Origin: Raja brachyura
Lineage: Eukaryota
NCBI GenBank assembly: GCA_963514005.1
Contig: OY740784.1
Span: 100,254,001-100,318,000, forward strand
DNA length: 64,000 nt
Direction: 5' to 3'
The notes under the pieces were generated by a model, which was not told the origin of the DNA, did no database searches, and saw only the letters and a list, made by a program, of their open reading frames with translations. The position numbers and the translations under genes were made by a program. Shown here one piece after another: positions 1-60,200 of the stretch; the stretch's first letter is position 1, and each line of letters opens with the position of its first letter.

Positions 1-1460
1 GGACTCCCCCAACATTGGGAACAATCTTCCAGCATCTAACTTGTCCAACCCCTTAAGAATTTTGTACGTTTCTATAAGATCCCCCCTCAATCTTCTAAAT
101 TCCAGCGAGTACAAGCTGAGTCTATCCAATCTTTCCTCATATGAAAGTCCTGACATCAGAGGAATCAGTCTGGTGAATCTTCTCTGTACCCCCTCTATGG
201 CAAGGATGTATTTCCTCAGATTTGGAGACCAAACCTGTACGCAATACTCCAGGTGTGGCCTCACCAAAACCCTGTACAACTGCAGTAGAACCTCCCTGCT
301 CCTATACTCAAATCCTTTCGCTGTGAATGCTAACATACCATTTGCTTTCTTCACTGCCTGCTGCACCTGCATGCCTACTTTCAATGACTGGTGTACCATG
401 ACACCCAGGTCTCGTTGCATCTCCCCCTTTCCTAATCTGCCACCATTCAGATAATAGTCTACCCTCATGTTTTTGCCACCAAAGTGGATAACCTCACATT
501 TATCCACATTATACTGCATCTGCCATGCATCTGCCCATTCACTCAGCCTATCCAAATCACCCTGCAGCCTCCAAGCATCCTCCTCACACCTAACTATACC
601 CCCCAGCTTGGTGTCATCTGCAAATTTGGAGATGTTGCATTGAATTCCCTCGTCCAAATCATTAATATATATTGTAAATAGCTGGGGTCCCAGCACTGAA
701 CCTTGCGGTACCCCACTAGTCACTGCCTGCCATTCTGAAAAGGACCCGTTTACTCCTACCCTTTGCCTCCTGTCTGCTAGCCAGTTCTCTATCCACATCA
801 ATATTGAACCCCCAATACCGTGTGCTTTAAGTTTGTATGCTAATCTCTTATGCGGGACCTTGTCGAAAGCCTTCTGAAAGTCTAGATATAACACAGCCAC
901 TGGTTCTCCCTTATCCACTCTACTAGTTACATCCTCGAAAATTCTATCAGATTTGTCAGACATGATTTACCTTTCGTAAATCCATGCTGACTTTGTCCAA
1001 TGATTTCACCAATTTCCAAATAAGCTGCTATCCCATCTTTAATAACTGACTCTAGCAGTTTCCCCACTACCGATGTTAGACTAACTGGTCTGTAATTCCC
1101 CGCTTTCTCTCTCCCTCCTTTTTTAAAAAGTGGGATTACATTAGTTACTCTCCAATCCTCAGGAACTACTCCAGAATCTAAGGAATTTTGAAAAATTATC
1201 ACTAATGCATCCACTATTTCTGTGGCTACCTCCTTGAGTACTCTGGGATGCAGACTATCTGGCCCTGGGGATTTATCGGCCTTCAATCCGTTCAATTTAC
1301 CCAACACCACCTCCCGGCTAACCTGGATTTTACTCAGTTCCTCCATCTTATTTGACCCCCTTCCACTGCTATTTCCGGCAGATTATTTATGTCTTCCTTA
1401 GTGAAGACAGAACCAAAGTAGTTATTCAATTGGTCTGCCATGTCCTTGTTCCCCATGATC
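1..1460 (-). mobile_element. CR1-clade LINE, ORF2 reverse transcriptase fragment (decayed; runs off window start)
   Basis: Minus ORF 927-1346 has KSPGPDSLHPRVLKE, PLFKKG, GNYRPVSLTSVVGKLLE and [14 protein letters not shown], all typical CR1 RT motifs; frameshifted continuation toward position 1. Confidence 0.93.
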
Positions 1461-16941: not shown

Positions 16942-18591
16942 GGTTTTTTTTCTCTTTCTATTTTTTGAACCTTGGGGATGGGGAGTGGGGGTGTATACGT
17001 TTTGTACTGTTCTGTACTGTTTGTTGGTGTTCTGTGTACATTTGTGTTTATCACTTGAAAACCAAAATAAAGTTATATAAAAAAAGAGGGGGAGAGAGGG
17101 GGGGGGAGATGAGGAGGGAGAGCGGGGGGTTGGGGGGGGGGGGTGTGAAGGGGGAGAAAGGAGTGGAGACAACTTTTTTAAGAAGCCAGAGATACACAGC
17201 TGTGAAGTCCACGGACATTTAACATTACCGGTCGGTTATCCTTGGTTCTGAAAACTCCTGCTTATGTATTTCTTCCCCCAATGAGCCAATGAAAATGACT
17301 GGACAGCAAAGGTGATTAACTAAAACTACCTACGACTGCCCATATCTACATGGCGACGCCACTACAACTGCACCTATGACCACAGGATTAGCGATTATCT
17401 CCATGGTGACCAAATTTTGTTGAAAATTTTGCAGCATCCATACTGAGGCCGCGACTAGTTTGTAGAATGCGGAAACTCCTCACGACCATGAAGGAGACTC
17501 ACCTGAGACCACCAGCGAACATGTGGCGAGTGCAGAGTCTCCTGCACTTGCCTAAAAAGTCACCTAATTGGGACAGGCCCATTAGTGTGCATCCCTGCTT
17601 CCTTTCCCAGACCAACTTTGCAAGCACAATCCAAAAAAGATGAACAATCATCTCATCCTCAATGTAGCTGCCTTGTGGGCAGCGTATGCTGGGAGTGGGT
17701 CGCCAACTGTTTCTTTGACAATCAAGCCAAGTCTTTATGCTTGTTGGTAAGTTATGATGAAGATATGTTCTGCCAAATGGTTTTGACATTCTGCTTGGGA
17801 AATTGAAGATGGGAGTTCAATGCTCCTCGTCTCCTGGCTTCAATCACGCAGGCTTGAAATCACATTCATGATCTTGTAATGCTTTAATCGATCATGCAAC
17901 CTGATTTATATTCTTATCCGTACCTGGGCACACTCTAAGGATGTGTAGCCTCCACCTAACCTCTGCCCCACTGCCCCATCTCTGAAGAGTTCCCCCACCA
18001 GATTCCCTCCACCTATTTCTTACGATTGCTGTGTGAATTGTCCTGTGATTGGAATCCTACAGAGACATGGCTGCAGGAGGTTCGGGCATGGGAACTTAAT
18101 ATTCAGGGTTATACATCCTACGAAAGGACAGGCAGGTGGGCAGAGGATGGGGGGGGGGGGGGGGGCGGGTAGCTCTGCAGGCGAGGGATGGAATTCAGAC
18201 CCTTGCGAGGGAAGACATAGGGACTGATGAGGTAGAGGCACTGTGGATTGAGTTGAGCAATTGCAAAGGCAAGAAGACACTAATTGGTGTTATCTACAGA
18301 CCCCCAAATAGTAGCCTGGATGTAGGGTGTAAGTTGCAGCAGGAGTTAAAACTGGCATGTAACAAAGGTAATGCCACTGTAGTGATGGGGGATTTCAATA
18401 TGCAGGTAGACTGGGAAAATCAGGTTGGTTCAGGTCCACAAGAAAGAGAATTTGTAGAGTCCCTCCGAGAAGGATTCTTAGAGCAGCTTGTAATGGAGCC
18501 GACCAGGGAAAAGGCAATTCTGGATTTAGTGTTGTCTAATGAACCAGATTTGATAAGAGAACTAGAGGGGAAGGAACCGCTTGGAGGTAGT

Positions 18592-18723
18592 CATCTTTCG
18601 TGTGGCGTGCACAGCCTAAAGTTGTAGGACAACTTGTTGTATTTGATCTTCCATTTGTGCATGTTGAGTTGATTACATTAGTCAAAACAGGGCGGACCAC
18701 GTGATGATGCAATCGTCCACCCC
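18592..18723 (-). mobile_element. 132-nt non-autonomous retroposon headed by an HDV/CPEB3-like ribozyme
   Basis: Flanked by an 11-bp TSD, TTGGAGG(T/C)AGT (18581-18591 and 18724-18734); interrupts the CR1 motif PLGGS|DDNM. Confidence 0.85.
18671..18723 (-). ncRNA. Putative HDV-like (CPEB3-type) self-cleaving ribozyme, minimal form lacking P4
   Basis: GGGGUGG-AC-GAUUGC-AUC-AUCACGU-GGU-CCGCCCU-GU-UUUGA-CUAAU-GUAAUC: P1 7 bp with G1-U wobble, P2 6 bp, P3 3 bp, L3 one change from UUCACGU, J4/2 CUAA. Confidence 0.75.
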
Positions 18724-20751
18724 TTGGAGGCAGTGATGATAATATGATAAGTTTTAATCTGCAATTTGAGAAGGAGAAGGTTAAATCGGAAGTGTCAGTG
18801 ATGCAGTTGAACAAAGGGGACTATGAATGCATGATGAAGAGCTGGACAAGGTAGATTAGAAAGGGATCCTAGCAGGAATGACGGTGGAACAGCAATGGCA
18901 GGAATTTCTGGGCATAATCCGGAAGACGCAGGATCATTTCATTCCCAAAAGGAAGAAACATTCTAAGGGGAGTAGGAGTCAACTGTGGCTGATGAGAAGT
19001 TAGGGATAGAATAAAACTAAAAGAAAAGATGTATAACACAGCAAAGAGTAGCCGGAACCCAGAGGATTGGGAAACTGTCATAGGACAACAGAAGGAAACA
19101 AAACGGGCAATACGGGCTGAAAAGATGAAGTATGAGGGGAAGCTGGCCAGGAATATAAAGAAGGACAGAAAAAGCTTCTTTAGATATGTTAAGGGAAAAA
19201 GAATAGCAAAGCCAAATGTGGGTCCCTTGAAGGCAGACACGGGTGAAATTATTATGGAGAGCAAGGAAATGGCAGAAGAGTTGAACAGGTACTTCGGATC
19301 TGTCTTCACTGATGAAGACACAAACAATCTCCCAGATGTACTGGAGGACAGATGATCTAAGTGGGTAGTGGAACTTAAAGACATTTTCATTAGGCGAGAA
19401 ATAGTATTGGGTAGGTTAATGGGCCTTAAGGATGATAAATCTACTGGGCCTGATGGTCTGCATCCCAGGGTCCTCAGGGAGGTGGCTCTAGAAATAGTGG
19501 ATGCATTGGTGATCAATTTCCAATGTTCAATAGATTCAGGATCAGTTCCTGTGGATTGGAGGATGGCTAATGTTATCCCACTTTTCAAGAAAGGAGAGAG
19601 AAAACGAGGAATTACAGACCAGTTAGTCTGACTTTGGTGGTGGGAAAGATGCTGGAGTCAATTATTAAAGAGGTCATAATGGGGCATTTATATAACAGTA
19701 AAAGGATTAGTCCAAGTCAGCATGGATTTATGAAAGGGAAATCATGCTTGACTAATCTTATGACTTTTTTTTAGGATATGACAAGTAAAATGGAGCCAGT
19801 GGATGTAGTGTATCTCGACTTTCAGAAAGCCTTTGATAAGGTCCCACACGGGAGACTGGTGACTAAAATTAGAGCACATGGTATGGTGTTGACATGGATA
19901 GAAAATTGGTTGGCAGACAGGAAGCAAAGAGTACGAGTGAATGGGTCCTTTTCAGAATGGCAGGAAGTGGCGAGTGGAGCGCCGCAAGGCTCGATGTTGG
20001 GGCCGCAACTGCTTACCATATATATTAATGAGTTGGAAGAGCACCTTAGGAGCAACACTAGCAAGTTTGCGGATGACACAAAGCTGGGTGGCAGTGTGAA
20101 CTGTGAAGAGGATGTTACGAGGTTGCACGGTGATGTGGACAGGTTGAGTGAGTGGGCAGATGTGTTGCAGATGCAGTTTAATATAGATAAATGTGAGGTT
20201 ATCCACTTTGATGGCAAAGACAAGGGGGCAGATCATTATCTCAATGGGGTTAGGTAAGGTAAAGGTGAGGTACAGTGAGACCTGTGTGTCCTTGTACACC
20301 AGTCACTGAAAGTTGGTGTGCAGTAACAGCAGGCAGTGAAGAATGCTAATGGAATGGTGGCCTTCATAACAAGTGGATTTCAGTATAGGAGAAAAGAGGT
20401 TCTTCTGCAGTTGTATAGGGCTCTGGTGAGACCACATCTGGAGTATTGTGTACAGTTTTGGTCTCCTAATTTGAGGAAGGACATCCTTGTGATTGAGGCA
20501 GTGCAGCGTAGGTGCACGAGATTGATCCCTGGGATGGCGGGACTGTCATATGAGGAAAGATTGAAAAGACTACGCTAGTATTCACTGGAGTTTAGAAGGA
20601 TGAGAGGGGATCTTATAGGAACATATAAATTTATAAAAGGACTGGACAAATAGATGCAGGAAAGATGTTCCCAATGTTGTGTGAGTTCAGAACCAGGGGC
20701 CACAGTCTTAGAATAAAGGGGAGACCATTTAAGACTGAGGTGATAAAAAGC

Positions 20752-26214: not shown

Positions 26215-27160
26215 CAAGGTCAAGAGAGTCAAGAGTCAAGAGTGTTTCATCGTCATATGTCCATGATAGAACAATGAGATTCTTATTTGCAGCAGCAAAA
26301 AGGATTTCCAAGGACTCATTGTAATAAACCCAGTGACTCACCATTCCCAAAGGCAAAGGAAACATTTTTTCAGCATCCACCATGTCAAAGATGTTTCATT
26401 GAAGCGACCTCTTATTCCTTTGAATTCCATTATATGCCAAATCCATTTAGCTTTGTATTCCTTTGCAGATTTCTTGTCCATTACTTAATCTGTCTATATC
26501 GTTTTGCTAGCTCCAGATGTCCACATCACAGTTTATTTTCCCACCTAGCTTTTAATTATCAGTAGATTTGCCTATTGACCATCACTCATGGACATGAATA
26601 GGCATTGGTAATGGTTTATTATTGTTACATGGACTGATATACAGTGAAAAACATGGTTTTGCATGCTCTTCAGTCAAATCATACCAAATATGAATACAAT
26701 CAAGCCATATGCAAGAACAACAGATATAGCAAAGAGAAAAATAACCAGAATGCAGAATATAGCATTAAAGCTACAAAGGGTAGCTTCAGCATCGAGAGCC
26801 TCGATCGCCTCGACGCAGCGGGAGAATAAGCAAGGAAGAGATAAGACTTTTTGCCTTCCATCTCAGTGAGGAGGTACCTGGAGATTCACTGTGATGGATG
26901 TTTGTGTTAAATTGTGTCCATTGTGTGTTTTTTGTTGCTTTTTTTCTGTCATGACTGCAAGGTACGCAATTTCGTTCAAATTTGAATGACAATAAAGGAA
27001 ATTCAATTCAATTCAAAAATGCTACATTTAAGTTTTGTATTAACTTATTTTATTGCAGATCATAAATCTAATCATAAATCTAATGACTACAGAAACTTAA
27101 TTTTGTTTGAACCTCAATGAGGTTCAAATGACAATAAATGGTATTGTATTGTATTGTAAT
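26215..27160. mobile_element. Cluster of Rex1/Babar-type 3' tails and derived short repeats
   Basis: AATTTCGTTC...AATGACAATAAA followed by short tandem tails (AATTC)n and (TATTG)n; (CAAGAGT)n tail in reverse orientation at 26220. Confidence 0.55.
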
Positions 27161-31062: not shown

Positions 31063-32130
31063 CCAGAGCCACAACTAAGCCACATGATCTTGTACACCAC
31101 TATCAAATCTATCTCATTATACTTACTAAGTAGAACAACCTTCAGATCCTCCAGTCTTAACGTTGTAGCTAGAATCTATTATCCTCGGGAACTTTTCTTG
31201 TAAAACTACTATGCCTGCTCTCTAGAGACATTGCATCCTTATAAAGCGCAGTAACCAGAGTTGGATGCAATATCACAGCTGTGACCAAACCTTTGTTTGA
31301 TAAAGGCTCAACATAAACTCTCTGCCTTGTTACAACCTCTCTTTACAAAGATTGGATTCTCTGACAAATGAATCGTCATTTGAAGTAATATATTTGAAGT
31401 AATCTTCATGCAAAATGTTGTTTATTTGCAGAATGCATGAACAGACAGGATGGTGGAAAAAGTGTTCATTCTTTGCTGAATGCAGCATACCACTCACACA
31501 TACAGCCTGTTGTCCCCAAATCTTGCAATTAATTGTTTTAGTTACACAAAGCCAATCTCTCCAGTTGAGAGCCAATGGTTTAGGTTTAGGTTTATAATTG
31601 TCACGTGTACAGAGGTATAATGAAAGCTTTGCTTTGCATGCTATTCAATCAGATCAGATAATACTATATACAAATACAATCAAGTCAAACTCAAGTGCAA
31701 TAGAAACATAATGCAGAATATTGGTGTGACAATGCCTGCAACCAGGGTACCAGGCAAGATGTAATTTGGTCACCATGGTGGGCCAGGCCAAGCCCTGCCT
31801 CCAAGGCAACCTACCAAATTGTCAGCAATATCTCCACCTTTGCCTTGGGTCAATTTTTTGGAGGCATTAAGTGGGGTCCCGGTGGGAATAGTGGAGAGGT
31901 CGGTGTGGCAGTCGATGAAGGCGTTGACCTGCGGACGAGGACAGAGCACTTGGGAATGAGGACGCTGCTGACGGGGGGAGTAACAAAGGAGGACCCGGCG
32001 TGGGGGGACTGGCGTGAGGGTGGCGGGAAGGGGAAGGCAGGAATCAATTGAAATTAAATTAAGAATAAAAAAATTATTAATTTTGAGATTAAATATAAAT
32101 TATGCAAGATCTATAAGAAAATACAATGGT

Positions 32131-32312
32131 CTTCTTCTTATTGAGTCAACACATAAGATTAGAAGTGGTTCAGCCAGAGCTGAACACACTTCCCGGCATC
32201 TGCGTACAATGGTATCTGTCTTGCGCTTCTTGTGCTCCTTGTGCTCCTTGTGCGTGGTGGTGGAAAGATTGGTGGAAACAGGGCCGCGATGTGAACACTC
32301 TTTCCTTGACCC
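32131..32312 (-). mobile_element. 182-nt non-autonomous retroposon headed by an HDV/CPEB3-like ribozyme, with (GAA)n tail
   Basis: Minus strand starts GGGTCAAGGAAAGA and ends AATAAGAAGAAG; TGGT duplicated at 32127-32130 and 32313-32316; internal (GCACAAGGA) repeats. Confidence 0.75.
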
Positions 32313-32313
32313 T
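32262..32313 (-). ncRNA. Putative HDV-like (CPEB3-type) ribozyme, minimal form lacking P4
   Basis: (A)GGGUC-AA-GGAAAGA-GUG-UUCACAU-CGC-GGCCCU-GU-UUCCA-CCAA-UCUUUCC: perfect 7-bp P2, P3 GUG/CGC, L3 UUCACAU, P1 6 bp. Confidence 0.75.
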
Positions 32314-34234
32314 GGTTCAACTGTGTAAGTGTAGGTGAATCATTGTGAGGTGATAACCTGGCATTTGTGTTTGAGTGTGTAGGGTCCAAAACATTCTGTA
32401 CTTACAGTTGTCAACGTGATTGTTTGATGTGCAACAATCAACATTTATAAGCAATATACACCCCACGACTTCTTGATAACTTAAACCATATAATTAAAAG
32501 GGACAATTTTTAGAGAAAAATTAGCAATTTGAGATGACATTGTGTGTTCTTTTAATGAATCAACAGTGAATTAATGGGTGGTGTTGCCCCCTTCTGTGCT
32601 GGAAGATTCTATGATCATCTCCAGGCCTGTCACTTACCGAATATATTTTTGTTTAATGGCTTTTTCTATTTTAAATATCTGTGTTGAATTATTTTACAGT
32701 TATAGGTTTAATTTATTTCATTTTTGCATGAAATGGTAGGTGGCTTAACAACAATGCACCTGGAGGCAATGGTAAATTTGAGAGACAATCTGGAGATAAT
32801 AATATAATTCTTCATTATATATATTTATATCACTTGCATTAAAAGCATTGCCTTTTTACGTAGCTTCTTTTCAAGTAATGTTTGTTACACAAAGTTTAGC
32901 CTTCCAGGCTTTTTACAATCAGCTCTCCTAATCCGATGTATTGATTTTATTACCTCTTGCTCCAAACTAAGTACACACTGTAGTAAATTTAATCAGAATG
33001 TAATGTCTGGTACTCTGTTCCACCAATTCAGTCTCAACTAAAAACTAGATCAAGTTGAGCCTCTTAATCGGCTTTCAAGCTCGAGGAACTGACCTGAAAT
33101 AGCCTCAGTAATATATATTTTGTGTTCAAATAACTCGATTTTCGTTCTACTTTAGTTCAGAATAATTATGTCTTGCAGTTTTACAGTGTACTCTGTCATG
33201 TGTTAATATTCTGTTATGAAATCCCTGTCATTTTATCAGAGATAGAATGAAAAGTATTTGTGACAGTTTATCACAAATATCTCATTGAGATTTCATTAAC
33301 CTCATGCTCTTTTAGAATCATGATGAGGAGTTTCTTTGAAAATGGGAATACCCAATGCTACTGTGACTTCTAACACTATGGAATGGAAACTCGAACTGAA
33401 GGAATGCCTCAACATTGCTCACATCTGCACTAGAATCAAAATTGTAATACTATTGCCATGCTACCAAAAAAAAATTCTAACATCCTTGCCATAATTCCAT
33501 ATACATTGTGGTATCTTGCTGTGACCTCCATGATGCGTTTTTTCCCCCCAGAAAATTCTGTAAATGAGATATCGGAGAAGGAAACTGAGGTGATCCTTCC
33601 TGCTAGACAGACTTTGACCTGAAAATGAAATTGCAGGACAACAGAGTGTTGCAGCAAATGAGCGGCAAGCCAGCTGCATCTGAATGAATTTGAGTAATCT
33701 CTGAGCGTGTTACAGCTCAACAATATCCATTAGATACAGCTTTTTCTACACAGTAAACCTATTATCATACAGAACACTTCATTTATCATTAATTTCCATC
33801 ACTGAATTCATACACAACCCCATATTTTCTGCTTGGCAAAATATTTATAAATCAATCACTAAAATCATAAATAGATTTTGATCAAAAACCATTAATAGTC
33901 CTGGATTTTTATAAATGCATTGTCATTTGTTTTATCGCTAGGTACCCATTGTTTTCTTCTTTCCAGCCAATCTGTTTAAACAGTTCCAAATACCACTTAG
34001 AGGTGCAACATTCCAGAAAGGCTTCACTATTCTTTAGGAAGCTCATCGCAGAGTGAATTATTTGATTATTATTAAAGTCAAATTTGGTCTGAGCTTACTG
34101 CAGTGGATGGGGTGCATGCTCCTATAAATAGTAGGTGGTTCTTAGGCAATGGCTCCGCATTTTCATCTTTTCTGCTAAATTCTGTTATTTCTGGTATTTT
34201 TGCATGGCTTTCCAATCAAGTAATATCAAGCCAG

Positions 34235-35790: not shown

Positions 35791-37289
35791 AGGCATGGGA
35801 ATCGCTGTCAAAACCTGTGGGGGACACAATTTCTTGGCGGTCGTGCGCTTGCGCACACATGCAAGGCTTTGGCAGTGGGGCCCTGTGGACGGTAACTTCG
35901 GGAGCTGACCTGGTTGGTGACCGACTATGAACTCCAGCAACGGCAGCTTCATCCGTCCCGAATCGTGGGGCTTGAATCGGCTGGCGGGGCTTCAACATCA
36001 GGATCACCTTGATGCGGAAGTTTGATTTTAAGCCACGCCAGGGCACTGAAAAGCCCTGCAAACAGGCCAATGCAGCCCTTAGAAAGAGGCTAATAAAGTG
36101 CGGATGACAAAACATTGGGGGGGGGGGGGGCGGGACAATCCTGAGGCTTTTTACACATACATCAAAAACAGGGCAATCCGGGAGAAAGTAAGATTGCTCA
36201 AGGATAAAGAAGAACATTTATGCTTCGGGTCAGAGGATAAATGAGGTATTAAGTAAGTACTTTGCATTTGTATTCTTCAAGGAGAGGGACATGGAGGACA
36301 GTCATATCAATGTGGGGAATACCAATGTGCCAGGGCAATTTAAGATCAGGAATATAATGGTGTTGGAGCTCATGAAGAGCATTTAATTGGATAAATCTCC
36401 AAGGGCCTGACATGATCTATCCCAAGTTATTGAGAGACAAGAGCAGGAGATTGCAGGGGTCTTGATGAAGATCTCTATTTCTTTTCTAGCCACACGAGGT
36501 CCTGGAGGACTGGAGACTAACCAACATATTCCTTTGTTTAAGAAGGGAAGTAGATATAATCCAGGAAATTATAGGCTGCTGAGCTTCAATAAAAGCTACT
36601 GGGGGGGATTCTGTGGGATAGGATATACTCAAATTTGGAAGTGAATTTGGCTTATTAAAGACTATCACTTGGTTTTGTCCATGGCAGGCTATGCCTTGTG
36701 AACTTAAGTGGATTTTCTGAGGTCACAACAATGATCAATAAAGGTATAGGCAGTGCATGTTGTCTGCATAGATTTTAATAAGGCACTTGTAATGATGTTA
36801 TTTCAGGATATGGTCCAAATACAGGCAAATTGGCCTATCATAGAAGGGGCTTTTTAATTTGACATGGACGTCGGGCTTAAGGACCTGATTCCCTTCTATG
36901 ATTGTATGACTACTTGATAAAGTCCTTCATGGTAGGCTGTTCCAAAAGATCAAAAGATGCATGGAATCCACAGTGACTTGGTGATTTGAATTTTACTTCG
37001 GAGTCACGTGAGTGACTTCGTGAAGACCCCGCCAGGCACGCATGCGCGACATATCGTCGACCGCATGCGAGCGACAGGCAGGGAGGAGCGTTGCTCCTCT
37101 ACTGCTGGGACCTGCAGGTAAGTAAAACACTAACCTGCGGTCTTTTTCTTCTAGGTGGCCCTGTCGCAGGGTCTCGAGGCCGCCTCGGATCTGACTGCTG
37201 CGGCAGTCAGCGGCGGCTCCAATAGTTGGAGTCGGGAAGCCCGTTGACCCAGGAGGGTCCGGGCTCACACACTCGCCGGCGGAGGACGG

Positions 37290-37900
37290 TAGAGGCAGCC
37301 CGACTCCACACCGCAGCCCGCGGGGGACGCCGCGTGCTGGCGGCACGAAAAGGAATGGGGCTTGCCGGCTCGCCGTCTCAAGTTCGCGACGGCAGCGCGG
37401 CAGCCCCGACTCTACACCACAGCCCGCGGGGAACACCGCGGGTTGGCGGTGTACATGTAGGAGTGGGGCTTGCAGGCTCGCCGTTCAAAGTAGGAATGGT
37501 AGAGCGGCAGCCCCGACTCTACACTGCAGCCGCGGGGGATACTGCGGGCTGGCGGTGTGCTTGCAGGAGTCGGGCTTGCAGGCTCGCCGTCAGAAGTTTC
37601 AACGGCGGAGCAGCAGCCCTGACTCTACACCACAGCCCGCGGGGGAAACAGCGGGCTGGCGGTGTGCATGCAGGAGTCGGGCTTGCAGGCTCGCCGTCAG
37701 AAGTTTCAATGGCGGAGCGGCAGCCCCGACTCTACACCACAGCCCGCGGGGGTGATACTGCAGGCTGGCGGTGTGCATGTGGAGTAGGGCTTGCTGTGCT
37801 TGCCATGGGCAGCAGCCCGACTCTACGCCGCAGCCTGCAGGGGTTCTGCGGGTTGCTGGCATTCAGGGAGAAGCAGGCTTGCAAGCAAAGGCAGCCTGAC
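37290..37900 (+). repeat. Tandem array of ~106-107-bp GC-rich hairpin units in the DIRS leader
   Basis: CAGCC(C)CGACTC(T/C)ACAC anchors at 37296, 37401, 37508, 37614, 37721 and 37813. Confidence 0.88.
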
Positions 37901-38509
37901 TCCACACTGCAACTGCAGGGATTCTGTGGCCTGGCTACATTAAAGTGCCCTGCTACTCTAGGGCAAGTAGTTCAGACTGCCAACATATAAAAGTTATTAA
38001 AGCATGAGAGGCTGGTCACCATACTTCTTCAAGACCCTCAGGTAAGATACTAACTTTGAATAGCTAAGCGTCTGTATTAGAGTTTGCTTACAGAGGGATG
38101 GAGACCAGAATGAAGGCAGCGAAGCAGGTCTCCAAGGGCCGTGCGACTTCAGATGGGAGTCAGCGGCCACCATTCCAGGAGAACGCGGAGGTCGGGGAGC
38201 CCTGCGCAGCCAGGACCCGTCTCTCCACCACGGCTGACCATGGGGCCGCAAAATGGTGGAGCACCGCGTGGGAGCAGGGTAGGCAAGACCTGGACTCCCT
38301 ACCACTCTCACCTATGCATAGTGACTGTGGGGCAAAGGTGCGTAAACATGTGACCCGCTCGGCGGCTCGTTTTGTCTCTCCTACTATGCAGGTATCAGAG
38401 ATGGGGAGAGCTGCGCACAGGTCATGCCCCGCTGCAGTGGGAGGCATCGACATACCGCCAGGGGTAACCTGCTAGACTGCAGGCCGGTGATGGACCTGCT
38501 GGAAATCGG

Positions 38510-39040
38510 GGAGCCCTGCAGGAGCAGGAGCAGGAGGTACCGGTGTCCACCGGAACAGGCTGCCGGAGTGCAGACCGGTGGCAGCAGTTTACGGCTAGGC
38601 AACCCCATTGCTACGGGTAAAGCCGGCTATGCGCCCTCATGGACCCGTGTGGTTAAGGGTGATGGCAAGCCTGCATGGACAGCGGAGCCGGTATTGGGGA
38701 CCGGTACCGATCCTTTCCTCTGCCTTCCCACCAGGCAGAGGTGCCGCTTAGGTCCAAACGACGGCGGACTGGCGGTATGTCCGTGCAGGAGTCGTACAGC
38801 CTGCGGGAGCAGGAGGTACCGGCACTGCACCGGAACAGGCTGCCGGAGCGCAGACCGGTGGCAGCAGAATACGGTTCGGCAATCCCGTTGCTGCGGGTAA
38901 AGCCAGCCAAGCGCCGTCACAGACCCCTGGGGGTGAGGGTGATGGTGTGCCTGCACGGACCACGGAGCCGGTATTGGGGACCGGTTCCGACTCCTTTCCT
39001 CTGCCTGCTCGTCAGGTAGAGAGGCCGCTAAGGTCCGAGG
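38510..39040 (+). repeat. ~281-bp direct duplication in the DIRS gag-like region
   Basis: CGGAGCCGGTATTGGGGACCGGT at 38682 and 38963; GAGCAGGAGGTACCGG..CCGGAACAGGCTGCCGGAG.GCAGACCGGTGGCAGCAG occurs twice. Confidence 0.85.
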
Positions 39041-41089
39041 GATGCCGGGCTAGCGGGTTGTCCTTGCGGAAGTCGTTCAGCCCCGCAGGAGCGGGTGCTG
39101 ACGAGTACCTGTCAGCCACTTCGTTGAGGTGTGACCTACTGGCAGAAGCCCCAGCGACTCATCAGGGCCTGGGGAAGTCGACCTGTTGTCCGTGTGTAGC
39201 GGCAGCGGTCGCATGGCTAGGATGGAGCTAATGGTGGAGCAACTATATCAGCAGGACCTGGGTCGGCAAGAGCAGGTGTCTCAGCGGTCTGGGAGTTCGG
39301 ATCATGACCACCACCTTCAATCTCACCGTCGTCCATCGGGAGTGCTAGCATTCAACAGATGGCCGATTTGACAAAGAAGCGGCAGCAGAAGAGCCCACTG
39401 CTCTCGATCCAGAAGAAGAAGTTGGAGGTGTCGAAAATCCGAAACCTGTTTTCAGGGGTACCGCTGCACTCTACATTGGCAGTAAGTATTAATTTCTTGA
39501 CGACACACCAGTTCCTAGACCAGGTGCTTTCAGAAACCATGGAGAAGTACAAGGATCCTGGAAACTGTGTTACCCTGAACATCCCGAGGGTCGACTCAGC
39601 CATCTGAGGGAACATCATTTCCAATGCGAGGGAACAAGAGATGAAGAGGCAGAAAATTCTGAAGCTATTGGCGTCGGGCATCACGGCGCTCATCAGGACC
39701 CTCGATGGGGCAGGTGCATCCGCAGAGCAGCAGGATGCTCTAGCCCTCCTGTGTAGCACACTTCGGGAAACTGTTTTAGTCAGAGCTCCATCCGGCCCGA
39801 CATTAACCCTGAATTCGCTGGGTTGGGTCGTACCTCCACCACACCTCCAAGACAGCTGTTTGGGGAGGACCTGCCCAAGCAGGTCAAAGACGAGGCCATC
39901 AAGAACACATCTGCACCAGCTCCCCAACAGCAGAAGCCTTGTTAGGGCAGAGCCAGCATAGACTACCTCACCACACACCAGCTGCAGGAACAAGGATTTA
40001 CCGAGGCGATCGAGCAGCACCCAGCAAAGAAGGAATACTAGAAACCAGAACGTCAGGCTCGCCGGTAACCATGGAGGTAAGGGGGCCTGGTTCTCTTGGA
40101 AGTGCTGCATGCATAACCTCACAAGTAGGAGGAACGTACATACATTCTGCGGCTCTGTTTGTCACTATCCAGGGAACAGAGCTATAGCCATAATAGATGC
40201 ATGTAACAGCCTTGCTTGCGCCAGGGAACCAACTTTCGACATGCTGCTAAGCTATGGGTAAATTGGAGCTACATTCCAGCCACATAATTGGGTCGTTACG
40301 CTATCAAAGCTTGGGTGAATAAGCAAAATCTCGGCATGTATAGCAAATGCTGGACAATTACGAGCTTAAGCAGCTGCCAATCAAAGCATAATTGAGGTAC
40401 AACGGTGGATTAGCAATGGTTGTGATTGTTAAATCCCATCATTACATCAAACCTAGTAGTCGCGTTACAAACCGACGCAAGCGCCAAGGGCTGGGGAACT
40501 ACTGACACCATTCCAGGTGGGGCGGTAAATGGGATTGCATGAGTCTACTTTCTTCAATCACAAGGTATAAACTGTTTAGAAATGCTGGGAGCATGTCCAG
40601 GGCTGCACGTTAATGCACTAATCTGCAGCATACGTATGTTCGTCTTCAAAATAATACCACTGAGGAGGCATATTAAACCTTATGGGTGGCGTCAAGTTAA
40701 TATCTTGGGATGAATTGGAAACATTAATTTGGCTCTGGTGGATTGAAAGAATTGGGTTCAGCTATGTACCTTCTGGATAAGCTCAATATAGTGGCGGACA
40801 CCAGGTCACAAGTATTAATAACGACATCAAGTAGATTGAACCTCCAAATATCTTCTAAAATGATAGCCTAATATGGAATACCAGATTTCGACCTCTTTGC
40901 GTCCAGATTGAGCCATTGGATACCAACATATGTCTTGAGAACTAGATCCTGGGGCAGTGGCGATGGACGCGTTTTCGCTACGTTGGGGGGAAATGCGGGG
41001 TTTCTATGTTTTCCCCATTCTGCTTCATCAGACAGGTGCTGCAGGATACGCAACCAGGCTCTGCAACATAAAGGACCATGGATGTCCAA

Positions 41090-53940: not shown

Positions 53941-54278
53941 TACACTTTTATTGACACTGTCATTTGTGAAAAAATGACAAGGAATAAGTGGCAACAAAGT
54001 GTTGGTGCCAAAGAATAGATAACAGCTATTTTCAGACAAAATGTTCCAAAGCCAATATTGCAATGCCACAGATACAGGATGTGGCTGAGAAGGAAGATAT
54101 CATCTTGCAGGTTATTCTTTAATTGAAGTTTAAATCCAAAAGAGAAAGTACAGATGTGCCCTATTTATCTGGTCCCTATCCTCCCCATCATATTTCTTGG
54201 ATCTTGTTCTGTCCTCCATTTTTGTTTTATTCCTATTTTGCAGACCAGGAATTCCCATTAAAATGAATAAGGGTTTCA

Positions 54279-57200
54279 ATAGACAATAGGTGCAGGAGTA
54301 GGCCATTCGGACCTTCGAGCCAGCACTGCCATTCAATGCGATCATGGCTGATCATCCCCAATCAGTGCCCCGTTCCTGCCTTCACCCCATATCCCCTGAC
54401 TCCGCTATCTTTAAGAGCTCTATCTAGCTCTCTCTTGAAAGTATCCACAGATCCAGCCTCCACCGCCCCCTGAGGCAGAGAATTCCACAGACTCACAACT
54501 CGCTGTGAGAAAAAGTGTTTCCTCGTTTCCATTCAAAATTGCTTACCTCTTATTCTTAAACTGTGGCCCCTGTTTCTGGACTTCCCCAACATCGGGAACA
54601 TGTTTCCTGCCTCTAGCGTGTCCAAACCCTTAACAATCTTATATGTTTCAATAAGATCCTCTCTCATCCTTCTAAACTCCAGCGTGTACAAGCCCAGCCG
54701 CTCCATTCTCTCAGCATATGACAGTCCCGCCCAACATGGAATTAACCTTGTAAACCTACGCTGCACTCCCTCAATAGCAAGAATATCCTTCCTCAAATTA
54801 GGGGACGATAACTGCACACAATACTCCAGGTGTGGTCTCACCAGGGCCCTGAACAACTGCTGAAGGACCTCATTGCTCCTATACATCGACTCCTCTTGTT
54901 ATAAAGGCCAACATGCCATTTGCTTTTTTCACTGCCTGCTGTACCTGCATGCCTACTTTCATAGAATGATGAACAAGGACCCCAGATCCCGTTGTACTTA
55001 CCCTTTTCCCAACTTGACGCCATTTAGATAGTAATCTGCCTTCCTGTTTTTGATACCAAACTGGATAACCGCACATTTATCCACATTAAACTTCATCTGC
55101 CATGCATCTGCCCACTCCCCCAACCTGTCCAAGTCACCCTGCATTCTCATAGCATCCTCCTCACAGTTCACACTGACACCCAGCTTTGTGTCATCTGCAA
55201 ATTTGCTAATGAATCCCTTCATCCAACTTTGAATCCCTCCATCCAAACCTTGATGTATATTGTAAATAGCTGCGGTCCCAGCACCGAGCCTTGAGGTACC
55301 CCACTAGTCACTGACTGCCATTCTGAAAGGGACCCATTAATCTCTACTCTCTATTTCGTGTCCACCAACTCATTTTCTATCCATGTCAGCACTTTACCCC
55401 CAATACCATGTGCCCTAATTTTGCCCACTAATCTCCTACATGGGACCTTATCAAATGCTTTCTTAAAGTCCAGGTACACTACATCCACTGGCTCTCCCTT
55501 GTCCATTTTCCTAGTTACATCCTCAAAAAAGTCCAGAAGATTAGTCAAGCATGATTTCCCCTTCGGAAATCCATGCTGACTCAGACTGATCCAGTTACTG
55601 CTATCCAAATGTGTGGCTATTTCATCTTTTATAATTGACTACAGCATCTTCCCCACCACCAATGTCAGGCTAACTGGTCTATAATTCCCTGTTTTATCTC
55701 TCCCATCTTTCTTAAAGAGTGGGATAACATTAGCTGCCCTCCAATCCACAGGAACTGATCCTGAGTCTATAGAATATTGGAAAATTATCACCAATGCAAC
55801 CACGATTTCAAAAGCTACTTCCTTATGTACCCTGGGATGCAGTCCAGCAGGCCTTGGGGATTTATCAGCCTTCGATCCCATCAGTCTACCCAACACCATT
55901 TCCTGCCAAATGTGGATTTCTTTCAATTCTTCCGTCACCCCAGATCCTCTGGCCACTACTATATCAGGAAAATTGTTCGTGTCTTCCTTAGTGAAGACGG
56001 ATCCAAAGTACCTGTTTAACTCTTCTGCCATTTCCTTGTTCCCCATAATAAATTCACCTTTTTCGGTCTTCAAGGGTCCAACTTTGGTCTCAACTATTCT
56101 TTTCCTCTTCACATACCTAAAGAAGCTTTTACTCTCCTCCTTTATATTCTTGGCTAGTTTACCTTCATACCTCATCTTTTCTCCCTGTATTGTTTTTTTA
56201 GTTATCTTCTGTTGCTGTTTAAACATTACCCAATCCTCTTGCTTCCCGCTCATCTTTGCTACATTGTACTTCTCTTTTATTTTTATACTGACCCTGACTT
56301 TGCCACGGTCGCCCCTTACTCCCCTTGGAATATTTCTTACTCCTAGGAATTAACTGATTCTGCACCTTCTGTATTATTCCTAGAAATACCTGCCATTTTT
56401 GTTCCACTGTCATCCCTGCTATGGTATCTTTCCAGTCAACTTTGGCCAGCACCATCCTCATGGCCCCATAGTCCGCTTTATTCAGCTGTAACACTGACAC
56501 CTCCGATCGACCTTTCTCCCTCTCCAATTGTAGATTAAACATGACCATATTATGGTCACTACCTCCTAATGGCTCATTAACCTCAAGTTCCTTTATCAAA
56601 TCTGTTTCATTACATAACACTAAATCCAGAATTGCCTTCTACTTGGTTGGCTCCAATACAAGCTGCTCTAAGAATCCATCACAAAGCCACTCTACTTTCT
56701 TGGGGTCCAGTACCAACCTGATTTTCCCTTTCTACCTGCATGTTGAAATCTCCCGTAACAACCACCACATTACTTTTACTACATGCCAATTTTAACTCTT
56801 GATTCAACTTGCACCCTATGTCCAGGCTACTGTTTGGGGGCCTGTAGATAAGTCTCATTAGGATATTTTTACCCTTACAATTGCTTAGTTGTATCCATAC
56901 TGACTCCACATCTCCTGTTTCAATGTCACCCCTTGCAAGGGACTGAATTTCATTCCTCACCAACAAAGCTACACCACACCCTCTGCCCACCTGTCTGTCT
57001 TTTTGATAGGAGGTATCGAAAAGACAGATATCCCTTGGATATTCTGTTCCCAGCCCTGGCCCTCTTGCAGCCATGTCTCTGTAATTCCCACAACATCATA
57101 CTTGTCAATTTCTAACTAAGCCTCAAGCTCGTCCACTTTATTCCTTATACTTCGCGCATTCATATACAACACTTTGTCCTCCATATTCACGTCCCCCTCT

Positions 57201-60200
57201 CGCACCGCTCGCAATTGGCCCTGACCTTACTCTTTTATCCCTTCTCGAACTTTCCTTCCCAATAAATCGAGAATCTTTTGTAAATTTTCCTGTACTCACT
57301 TCCCCTTCAACTCCATCTTTATACTTCCAATTTTCCAATTCCCCCCCCCCCCCCACTATTTAGTTTAAACCCAGATGAGTAGCCCTAGCAAACCTGCCTG
57401 CCAGAATATCGTCCCCCTCCAGTTAAGGCATAATCCATCCCTTTTGTACAGGTCACCACTACCACAGAAGAGATCCCAGTGGTCTATAAATATAAATCCT
57501 TGCTCCCTGCACCAACCCCTCAGCCACACATTCACATCCCCTATCTCCCTGTTCCTGTCCGCACTAGAATGAGGTACTGGAAGCAATACAGCCTAGAAGT
57601 CCTGCTTTTCAGTCTTCTTCCTAACACTCTGAAGTCATGTTGGAGAACCTCCTTCCTCTTCATTCCGATATCGTTTGTGCCTATGTGCACAAATACTACC
57701 TTGGAATGTATGCTGCATAGTTTTCTAAACGAACATGTAGAGGAACCAATGAGAGAGCAGGCTATTCTAGACTGGGTATTGAGTAATGAGGAAGGGTTAG
57801 TTAGCAGTCTTGTTGTGCGTGGCCTCTTGGGCAAGAGTGACCATAATATAGTTGAGTTCTTCATTAGGATGGAGAGTGACAAAATTAAGTCCGAAACAAG
57901 GGTTCTGAACTTAAAGAAAGGTAACTTTGAAGGTATGAGATGTGAATTGGCCAAGACGAACTGGCAAGTGATTCTCAAAGGGTTGACGGTGGATATGCAA
58001 AGGAAGGCATTTAAAGACTGCATGAATGAACTACAACAATTGTTCATCCCAGTTTGGCAAAAGAATACATCAGGGAAAGTAGTGCATCCGTGGATAACAA
58101 GGGAAATCAGGGATAGTATCCATACAAAAGATGAAGCATACAAATTAGCCAGAAAAAGCAGCTTACCAGAGGACCGGGGGAAATTCAGAGTCCAGCAGAG
58201 GAGGACAAAGAGCTTCATTAGGAAAGGGAAAATAGATTATGAAAGAAAACTGCCAGGGAACATAAAAACGTATTTATAGATATACGAAGAGAAAGAGGTT
58301 AGTTAAAACAAATGTAGGTCCCTTGCAGTCAGAAATGTGCGAATTGATCATGGGGAACAAGGACATGGCAGACCAATTGAATAACTACGTTGGTTCTGTC
58401 TTCACTAAGGAAGGCATAAATAATGCCAGAAATAGCAGGGGACCGGGGTCAAATGACATGGAGGAACTCAGTGAAATCCAGGTTAGCCGGGAAGTGGTGT
58501 TAGGCAAATTGAATGGATTAAAGGCCGATAAATTCCCAGGGCCAGATAGGCTGCATCCCAGAGTACCGAAGGAAGTAGCACCAGAAATAGTGGATGCATT
58601 AGTGATAATTTTTCAAAACTCTTTACATTTTGGAGTAGTTCCTGAGAATTGGAAGGTAGCTAATGTAACCCCATTTTTAAAAGGGAGGGAGAGAGAAAAT
58701 GGGGAATTACAGACCAGTTAGTCTAACATCGGAAGTTGGGAAAATGCTAGAGTGAGTTATTAAAGATGGGATAGCAGCACATTTGGAAAGTGATTAAATT
58801 ATTGGACAAATTCAGCATGGATTTACGAAAGGTAAATCATGTCTGACGATTCTTATAGAATTTTTCGATGATGTAACTAGTAGAGTGGATAAGGGAGAAC
58901 CAGTGGATGTGTTATATCTTTCAGAAGGCTTTCGACAAGGGCCCACATAAGAGATTAGTATACAAACTTAAAGCATACGGTATTGGGGGTTCAGTATTGA
59001 TGTGGACAGAGAACTGGATGGCAAACAGGAAGCAAAGAGTAGGAGTAAACGGTCCTTTTCAGAATGGCAGGCAGTGACTAGTGGGGTACTGCAAGGCTCA
59101 GTGCTGGGACCCCGATTATTTACAATATATATTTATGAGCTGGATGAGGGAATTGAATGCAACATCTCCAAGTTTGCGAATGACACGAAGCTGGGGGGCA
59201 GTGTTAGCTGTGAGGAGGATGCTAGGAGGGAGCAAGGTGACTTGGATAGGTTGGGTGAGTGGGCAAATGCATGGCAGATGCAGTATAATGTGGATAAATG
59301 TGAGGTTATCCACTTTGGTGGCAAAAACAGGAAAGTAGACTATTATCTGAATGGTGGCCGATTAGGAAAAGGGGAGATGCAATGAGACGTGGCTGTCATG
59401 CTACACCAGTCATTGAAAGTAGGCATGCAGGTGCAGCAGGCAGTGAATAAAGCAAATGGTATGTTGGCATTCATAGCTAAAGGATTTGAGTACAAGAACA
59501 GGGAGTTTCTACTGCAGTTGTACAGGGTCTTGGTGAGGCCACGCCTGGAGTATTGCATACAGTTCTGGTCTCCTAATCTCAGGAAATACATTCTTGCCAT
59601 AGAGGGAGTACAGAGAAGGTTCACAAGACTGATTCCTGGGATGGCAGGACTTCCATATGAAGAAAGACTGGCTAGACTCGGCTTGTACTCACTGGAATTT
59701 AGAAGATTGAGGGGGGATCTTATAGAGACTTACAAAATTCTTAAGGAGTTCGACAGGCTAGATGCAGGAAGATTGTTCCTGATGTTGGGGAAGTCCAGAA
59801 CAAGGGGTCACAGTTTAAGGATAAGGGGGCAGTCTTTTAGGACCGAGATGAGAAAGTCATTTTTCACACCGAGAGTGGTGAATCTCTAGAATTCTCTGCC
59901 ACAAAAGGTAGTTGAGGCCAGTTCATTGGCTATATTTAAGAGGGATGTAGATGTGGCCCTTGTGGCTATAGGGATCAGGGGGTATGGAGAGAAGGCATGT
60001 ACAGGATATTGAATTGGATGATTAGCCATGATCATATTGAATGGCGGTGCATGCTCGAAGGGCCGAATGGCCTACTCCTGCACTTATTTTCTATGTTTCT
60101 ATGTTTGTCTCTCGAAGATGTTCTGAATTTGGCTCATGACATCATGAACCCTGGCACCAGGGAAGCAACAGACCATCCTTGCATCTCGTCTGCCACCACA

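Follow-up and report, generated by a model that had tools for sequence, protein, structure and literature searches.

How does a core almost identical to that of the mammalian CPEB3 ribozyme come to head a short repeat in Raja brachyura, and does its presence there bear on where the CPEB3 ribozyme came from? The locus that raises the question lies on the minus strand, at 32131..32313, of a 64,000-nucleotide stretch of DNA (assembly GCA_963514005.1, contig OY740784.1, positions 100,254,001 to 100,318,000), here called the window. The CPEB3 ribozyme is memory-linked and has been described as being without outgroups. In our assessment it is quite probable that the locus consists of the two ends of a Vingi-type long interspersed nuclear element (LINE), headed by a predicted 52-nt ribozyme like that of hepatitis delta virus (HDV), and that the CPEB3 ribozyme likely derives from a related Vingi 5' end.

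A dispersed element made of two LINE ends

The locus is one aged copy of a dispersed repeat of about 175 nt. Positions 32131-32312 (182 nt) are bounded by a 4-nt ACCA repeat, and on the minus strand a 52-nt head is followed by a leader containing 9-nt tandem units, then by a hairpin region and finally by (AAG)3. An earlier note on this DNA had described the tandem units and the tail, and both are present on this strand, as are the 22-nt core and a second helix paired throughout its 7 bp. Helices, loops and joining segments are labeled P, L and J below.

32131..32313, minus: whole non-autonomous element, an aged copy of an internally deleted Vingi-type LINE derivative (39 similar copies; ends common to the coding locus L153)
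32262..32313, minus: predicted 52-nt P4-less HDV-like ribozyme (fold descriptor, match to Rfam model RF00622, family head counts)
32313-32308 with 32285-32280, minus: P1 of the predicted ribozyme
32305-32299 with 32268-32262, minus: P2 of the predicted ribozyme
32298-32296 with 32288-32286, minus: P3 of the predicted ribozyme
32295-32289, minus: L3 of the predicted ribozyme
32279-32278, minus: GU after P1
32272, minus: predicted catalytic C
32201..32261, minus: remaining LINE 5' leader, up to the deletion joint at about 32201-32205 (aligns to the L153 5' end)
32220-32253, minus: 9-nt tandem units in the leader (tandem array seen)
32140..32201, minus: final codons of the LINE frame and short 3' untranslated region (UTR; matches the 3' ends of 12 coding fragments)
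32161-32159, minus: stop codon of the LINE frame
about 32193-32161, minus: predicted hairpin (fold z -2.19)
32131..32139, minus: (AAG)3 tail (same tail on partner LINE copies)
32127..32130, repeated at 32313-32316, minus: ACCA, a possible short or decayed target-site duplication (read directly)

A genome search returned 2,543 first-look candidates. Forty copies were scored, the 39 other than the window copy being 86-90% alike over the same span, and 30 loci were fetched, chosen for their likeness to the window copy; no second copy was found within the 64-kb window. The copies are bounded by target-site duplications at 23 of the 30 fetched loci, compared with 4 of 870 in a control of mismatched flank pairs, and the ACCA repeat of the window copy falls below the score used for these loci. 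In 16 of the 23 the duplication runs to the first G of P1 (G1) or to a single ambiguous G beyond it; in the other seven it stops 2-3 nt upstream of G1. The intact head occurs exactly at 70 loci and its reversed control at none. Divergence from the family majority averages 3.3% in the fetched copies and reaches 7.0% (12/172 columns) in the window copy, two of whose 9-nt units have G where the family has A; across the 30 copies, CpG sites have changed five times more often than others (56/473 versus 114/4,671). Contigs from four sequencing runs of four studies contain parts of the element, flanked by unrelated sequence and sharing the same 5' boundary, although such contigs reveal neither starts nor expression. 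One copy of the family (L056) is split by an insert that has inverted ends and resembles a small DNA transposon.

The partner of this short element was sought with a gapped pattern, and 12 of the 30 loci fetched are coding fragments, the rest being mostly short copies. The coding fragments have their final ~75 nt in common with the short element and encode a CCHC-type end upstream of it. One locus, L153, has this head too (90.5% over 74 nt), with a reverse-transcriptase (RT) frame with breaks, a CCHC-type end between head and tail, the same tail and a flanking duplication. Aligned to it, the short element is the leader of the LINE joined to its last codons at a few shared bases. Two other approaches gave no partner: none of the 30 matches fetched out of 150 in an RT search had the tail of the family, and a search with the 3' half of the element alone listed 40 short matches without a route to the LINE. 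Window positions 26837-27123 were considered as a piece of the partner and rejected, being an unrelated repeat that is inserted in L153. The element shows no head derived from a polymerase III RNA, of the kind that some short interspersed nuclear elements (SINEs) have: it begins at P1, and its head aligns with the 5' end of the LINE itself, in a comparison that did not include a tRNA scan.

The predicted 3' hairpin of the window copy folds at z -2.19, with 8 of 200 shuffles as good, and such support is absent in copy L057. Two changes that would lengthen it are present in 26 of the 30 short copies, and the shorter form in 7 of the 12 LINE ends; the longer hairpin of the short copies would fit a recognition signal. 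By analogy with L1Tc/NARTc (PMC3383444), the partner LINE protein would bind the hairpin and tail and copy the RNA in trans by target-primed reverse transcription.

A predicted ribozyme without P4

Self-cleavage of the head just before G1 is predicted from its fold. The family majority, counted over 34 of the 39 heads (the five dropped comprise one with a deletion, three with an extra base and one mislocated), has a 6-bp P1 with G1-U, a two-base joint, a 7-bp P2, P3 as GCG/CGC, L3 as UUCACGU, then GU, a 5-nt linker instead of P4, and C-C-A-A ahead of the second half of P2. G1 is kept in 31 of the 34 heads and the predicted catalytic C of J4/2 in all of them. The earlier note had attributed the core differences between the window copy and CPEB3 to CpG decay and had proposed a family consensus as a check. 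The two differences are CpG transitions: family copies restore GCG and UUCACGU, keeping the P3 C in 30/34 and the L3 G in 25/34 (A in 9). Its P1 of 5-6 bp stands as 6 bp with G1-U in the family, with the refinement that position G1 (32313) is A in the window copy. This copy deviates further at 32297 (C>T) and at 32290 (G>A). It is probably inactive, because both G1 and the L3 G are missing from it; in the CPEB3 ribozyme the change of G1 to A alone lowers cleavage from 92% to 3% (PMC8233481).

The CPEB3 model RF00622 matches the window at 32262-32324 with 25.7 bits (E 0.00017), under its gathering score of 35, and no Rfam family matches the window at gathering level; the best copies of the family reach 35.1-37.4 bits. 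An HDV-fold descriptor found one match in both strands of the window, at 32313, and one in six shuffled 64-kb strands, and its strict form was passed by 14 of the 30 family loci.

A host transcript that reads across a copy would be cleaved immediately before G1, leaving an RNA with a defined 5' end, as in the L1Tc/NARTc elements. The same fixed end could come from an internal promoter like Pr77, the element being as described and its P4-less head, with a 6-bp P1, no longer cutting. The head combines two reductions, seven of the 23 duplications stop upstream of G1, and in L1Tc/NARTc the promoter and the ribozyme occupy the same 77 nt, both from +1 (PMC3383444), all of which would suit a promoter. 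Against it, the family majority and the layout of the partner LINE retain every helix and catalytic position, and P2 differs from that of the related families described below by two-sided changes. Neither reduction is without precedent: R2 ribozymes have a P1 of 6 or 7 bp, silkmoth R2 ribozymes without P4 retain low-level cleavage, and a 5-nt replacement of P4 is reported in abalone (PMC3774820). We consider the promoter explanation unlikely, with a small but appreciable chance of being right, and retain the predicted ribozyme.

Sister families and the CPEB3 ribozyme

Searching the genome with RF00622 yielded 58 matches of 59 scored, 32 of them over the cut-off and the best at 65.8 bits. The 30 that were fetched fall into the window family (8) and three sister families, B (12), C (5) and D (5). 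The heads of B and C are joined to frames encoding an apurinic-type endonuclease (APE) and RT, the frame of C being related to that of B. A 7-bp P1 and a P4 stem are present in all three sister families, and the window family has neither. The stems covary across the four families: in 29 heads, 92.3% of cells are paired and 10 of 23 pairs have changed on both sides, against 39-50% paired in slid controls, although these counts overstate the independent events because the four lineages are related. P1.1, which with P1, P2 and P3 makes up the nested double pseudoknot of HDV-like ribozymes, was counted in families B-D and read by eye in the window family. Short forms with internal deletions, starting at the ribozyme, occur in families B and C and probably in D (L031, L032, L046; L042; L038-L040, L048, L049), and at two loci (L163, L076) the ribozyme head is inverted and joined to a LINE body, the 5'-inversion pattern of insertion.

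To which LINEs do these heads belong? A full-length family B element (L061, ~2.94 kb) has G1 as its first base, a single frame for APE, RT and a CCHC-type end, and a terminus of AAG repeats between copies of a 10-bp duplication with one mismatch. Pfam finds RVT_1 in it at E 2.2e-7 and Exo_endo_phos at E 0.007, under the cut-off. No RNase H was evident in the translations of L061 and L153, Pfam having been run on stop-free pieces that cover the C-terminal part incompletely. In rough alignment, the RTs of families A, B and C are 36-51% alike in their best rows, and in a rough RT tree families A-H group together, apart from CR1. RTE elements do not typically have a zinc finger at the C-terminus. 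On its sequence, the window element is most probably a Vingi-type LINE with its middle deleted and not an RTE derivative; the earlier note had likened its tail to that of RTE/Ingi-related LINEs and named Vingi among the elements to compare, and the partner LINE and the 5' end of Vingi-2_Gav point to Vingi. That the parent came from RTE or another clade would fit the compact RTE elements, which likewise have two-part non-autonomous copies and HDV-like ribozymes (PMC5786205). Yet the head is nearly identical to the 5' end of the named Vingi-2_Gav, whose 3,128 nt (PMC5786205) compare with the ~2.94 kb, single-frame APE-RT and CCHC-type end of L061, and we regard another clade as most improbable.

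The likeness to CPEB3 differs among the families. In the window family it is mostly confined to P3, L3 and the 3' side of P1 (22/23 positions; this and the following counts were made by eye). Single decayed copies of family C match 54/67 and 55/67 RF00622 consensus positions, with the P4 stem at 14/14 in L034, and the family B copy L031 matches 51/67. In the supplement of PMC5786205, Vingi-2_Gav 2-74 matches RF00622 at 46/48 positions outside P4/L4, and the P4 stem of SINE2-1_AMi is identical to that of CPEB3 (14/14). The earlier note's suggestion that the element bears on a retroelement origin of CPEB3-type ribozymes therefore gains in strength, because sister families that have P4 now underlie it in addition to the core of the window family.

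Could this likeness have arisen by convergence, the catalytic core being constrained? R2 ribozymes and HDV are a documented case of convergent active sites (PMC3774820), so that the core of the window family, to which most of its identity is restricted, proves no descent by itself. In the sister families, on the other hand, the identity runs through P1, P2, J4/2 and the P4 stem, sequences free to covary, where an identical 7-bp stem would arise by chance about once in 16,000 (a rough figure assuming equal base use). A one-pair P1.1 with a U-U pair, described for CPEB3 (PMC9901934), is common to both. The same LINE group uses another core too, in family E, and together with the single locus L200 this indicates that an HDV-like fold does not force the CPEB3 sequence. 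We judge convergence quite unlikely.

Descent may also have taken another route, in which CPEB3 and the heads are homologous through an intermediate, such as a SINE with a Vingi 5' part, or in which LINEs captured a ribozyme from a host locus. SINE2-1_AMi bears a Vingi head with the CPEB3-identical P4 stem, and its L3 is altered at both ends and its P1 shortened, as would be expected if removal of the tRNA head were selected against (an argument of PMC5786205). At CPEB3 the ribozyme has been reported only in mammals (PMC8233481). None of the 58 RF00622 matches lies near the five CPEB loci of this genome, and there is none in 150 kb across the CPEB3-like gene, which we take to be the CPEB3 paralog from its motifs. 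A ribozyme restricted to mammals at CPEB3 and missing there in this genome, with heads on several diverged LINE families, points to a direction from LINE to host, and either indirect route seems to us very unlikely.

A domesticated Vingi 5' end is accordingly the reading of the CPEB3 ribozyme that we find most likely from these comparisons: one Vingi-type 5' end would have inserted into a CPEB3 intron in an early mammal and been kept for its cleavage activity. We also think it probable, as a joint claim, that the CPEB3 ribozyme is such an end, that vertebrate Vingi families are its missing outgroups, and that a working 52-nt form without P4 and with a 6-bp P1 drove thousands of insertions of the window family.

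Besides the relatedness of the four lineages, several points weigh against this account. Families B-D were picked with the CPEB3 model, which biases the selection toward CPEB3 likeness; no coding frame is tied to the head of family D, and the endonuclease part of L153 is missing. The RT tree is rough, and no named Vingi protein is among the 120 homologs listed. Nested folding gives the head no support (z -1.04 and +0.60), in programs that cannot model pseudoknots, and a 6-bp P1, no P4 and a one-pair P1.1 may together be weak.

Domestication has been proposed in general terms (PMC7761336), and no donor of the CPEB3 ribozyme is named in the passages available of PMC6765202, PMC10919898, PMC8256844, PMC4035085 and PMC9901934, or of preprints. 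The available part of PMC5786205 has no mention of CPEB3 and omits Vingi from its list of ribozyme-bearing clades, and the passages seen on Vingi and ribozymes assign none to Vingi. The link was not found in the literature surveyed, outside which lie subscription journals, patents and Repbase, where prior notice is possible.

If the account is true, Vingi heads would name the donor of the CPEB3 ribozyme and provide outgroups for ancestral and mutational work, one could ask which changes accompanied domestication, and vertebrates would have, in the 52-nt form, a minimal HDV-like ribozyme of natural origin. A ribozyme at the Vingi 5' end would also bear on the design of RNA templates for gene insertion, for which Vingi-1 is in use with driver and donor RNAs that retain its 5' UTR (PMC13708176). 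The worth of the window family is that it leads to a named and testable source for the CPEB3 ribozyme.

Other heads, surroundings and known systems

Other Rfam ribozyme families have no match at the window and sister heads up to E 10. Over the genome, the drz-agam-1 model RF01787 gave none over the cut-off (0/56 scored), and the HDV model RF00094 gave 1 of 84 scored, under the cut-off. This single match is L200 (G000:C1:88136270-88136352, minus; 43.8 bits), a single-copy, fully paired HDV-type fold with a 7-bp P1 with G1-U, a 7-bp P2, a two-pair P1.1 and P4, and no frame downstream; it may be the isolated remnant of a LINE 5' end or a second ribozyme that was kept. The 5' end of family E, seen in L212 (about 455-520 in element orientation; G000:C53:3942150-3944950), has an HDV-like fold whose core differs from that of CPEB3, and by eye it has P3 ACC/GGU and GG after P1 in common with L200. 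Twenty further LINE loci (17 of family E, three of family F) had no Rfam match at E 0.5, and one of them, L212, reached the 5' head. Copies of family E are ~95% alike, and protein pieces of L157:2610-3914 are 84-92% identical to eel, skate and icefish entries, which suggests horizontal transfer among fishes.

Most of the window (1-1460, 18051-20750, 54277-60106 and others) consists of CR1/L2-like and L1-like LINE fragments, named from their translations. A GC-rich stretch at 36000-40000 contains a tandem array of period 107, itself GC-rich, and a direct repeat of ~280 nt (37294-37794 and 38524-39095). No host exon was recognized among the 26 of 35 long window frames that were read.

The closest parallels are the pairs NARTc/L1Tc and RIME/ingi, in which, as here, a short element is built from the 5' and 3' ends of its own LINE; the L1Tc ribozyme is likewise HDV-like and cleaves at the first base of the element (PMC3383444), the position predicted here. 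Unlike NARTc/RIME, the window element is from a vertebrate, is Vingi-type, has a CPEB3-type core and ends in (AAG)n rather than poly(A), and unlike the L1Tc ribozyme its family head, a ribozyme by prediction only, has no P4 and a 6-bp P1. Vingi LINEs and their deletion derivatives (Vingi-1_EE derivatives, Vingi-2_Gav, SINE2-1_AMi) are likewise compact, with a single APE-RT frame and two-part non-autonomous copies, and the head is near-identical to the Vingi-2_Gav 5' end (PMC5786205 supplement). A short linker in place of P4 is also found in drz-Mtgn-1 and theta ribozymes (PMC10879173) and in P4-less R2 ribozymes (PMC3774820); drz-Mtgn-1 and theta sit beside tRNAs in gut phages and the P4-less R2 ribozymes occur in insects, whereas the window head rides on a high-copy vertebrate retroelement with a CPEB3-type core. 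With the CPEB3 ribozyme (RF00622) the window family has in common P3, L3, the GU after P1, a two-base J1/2, a 7-bp P2 and C-N-A-A in J4/2, and the sister families add the 7-bp P1 and P4. Unlike it, the window family is dispersed rather than single-copy, lies outside CPEB3 introns, and carries a 6-bp P1 and no P4.
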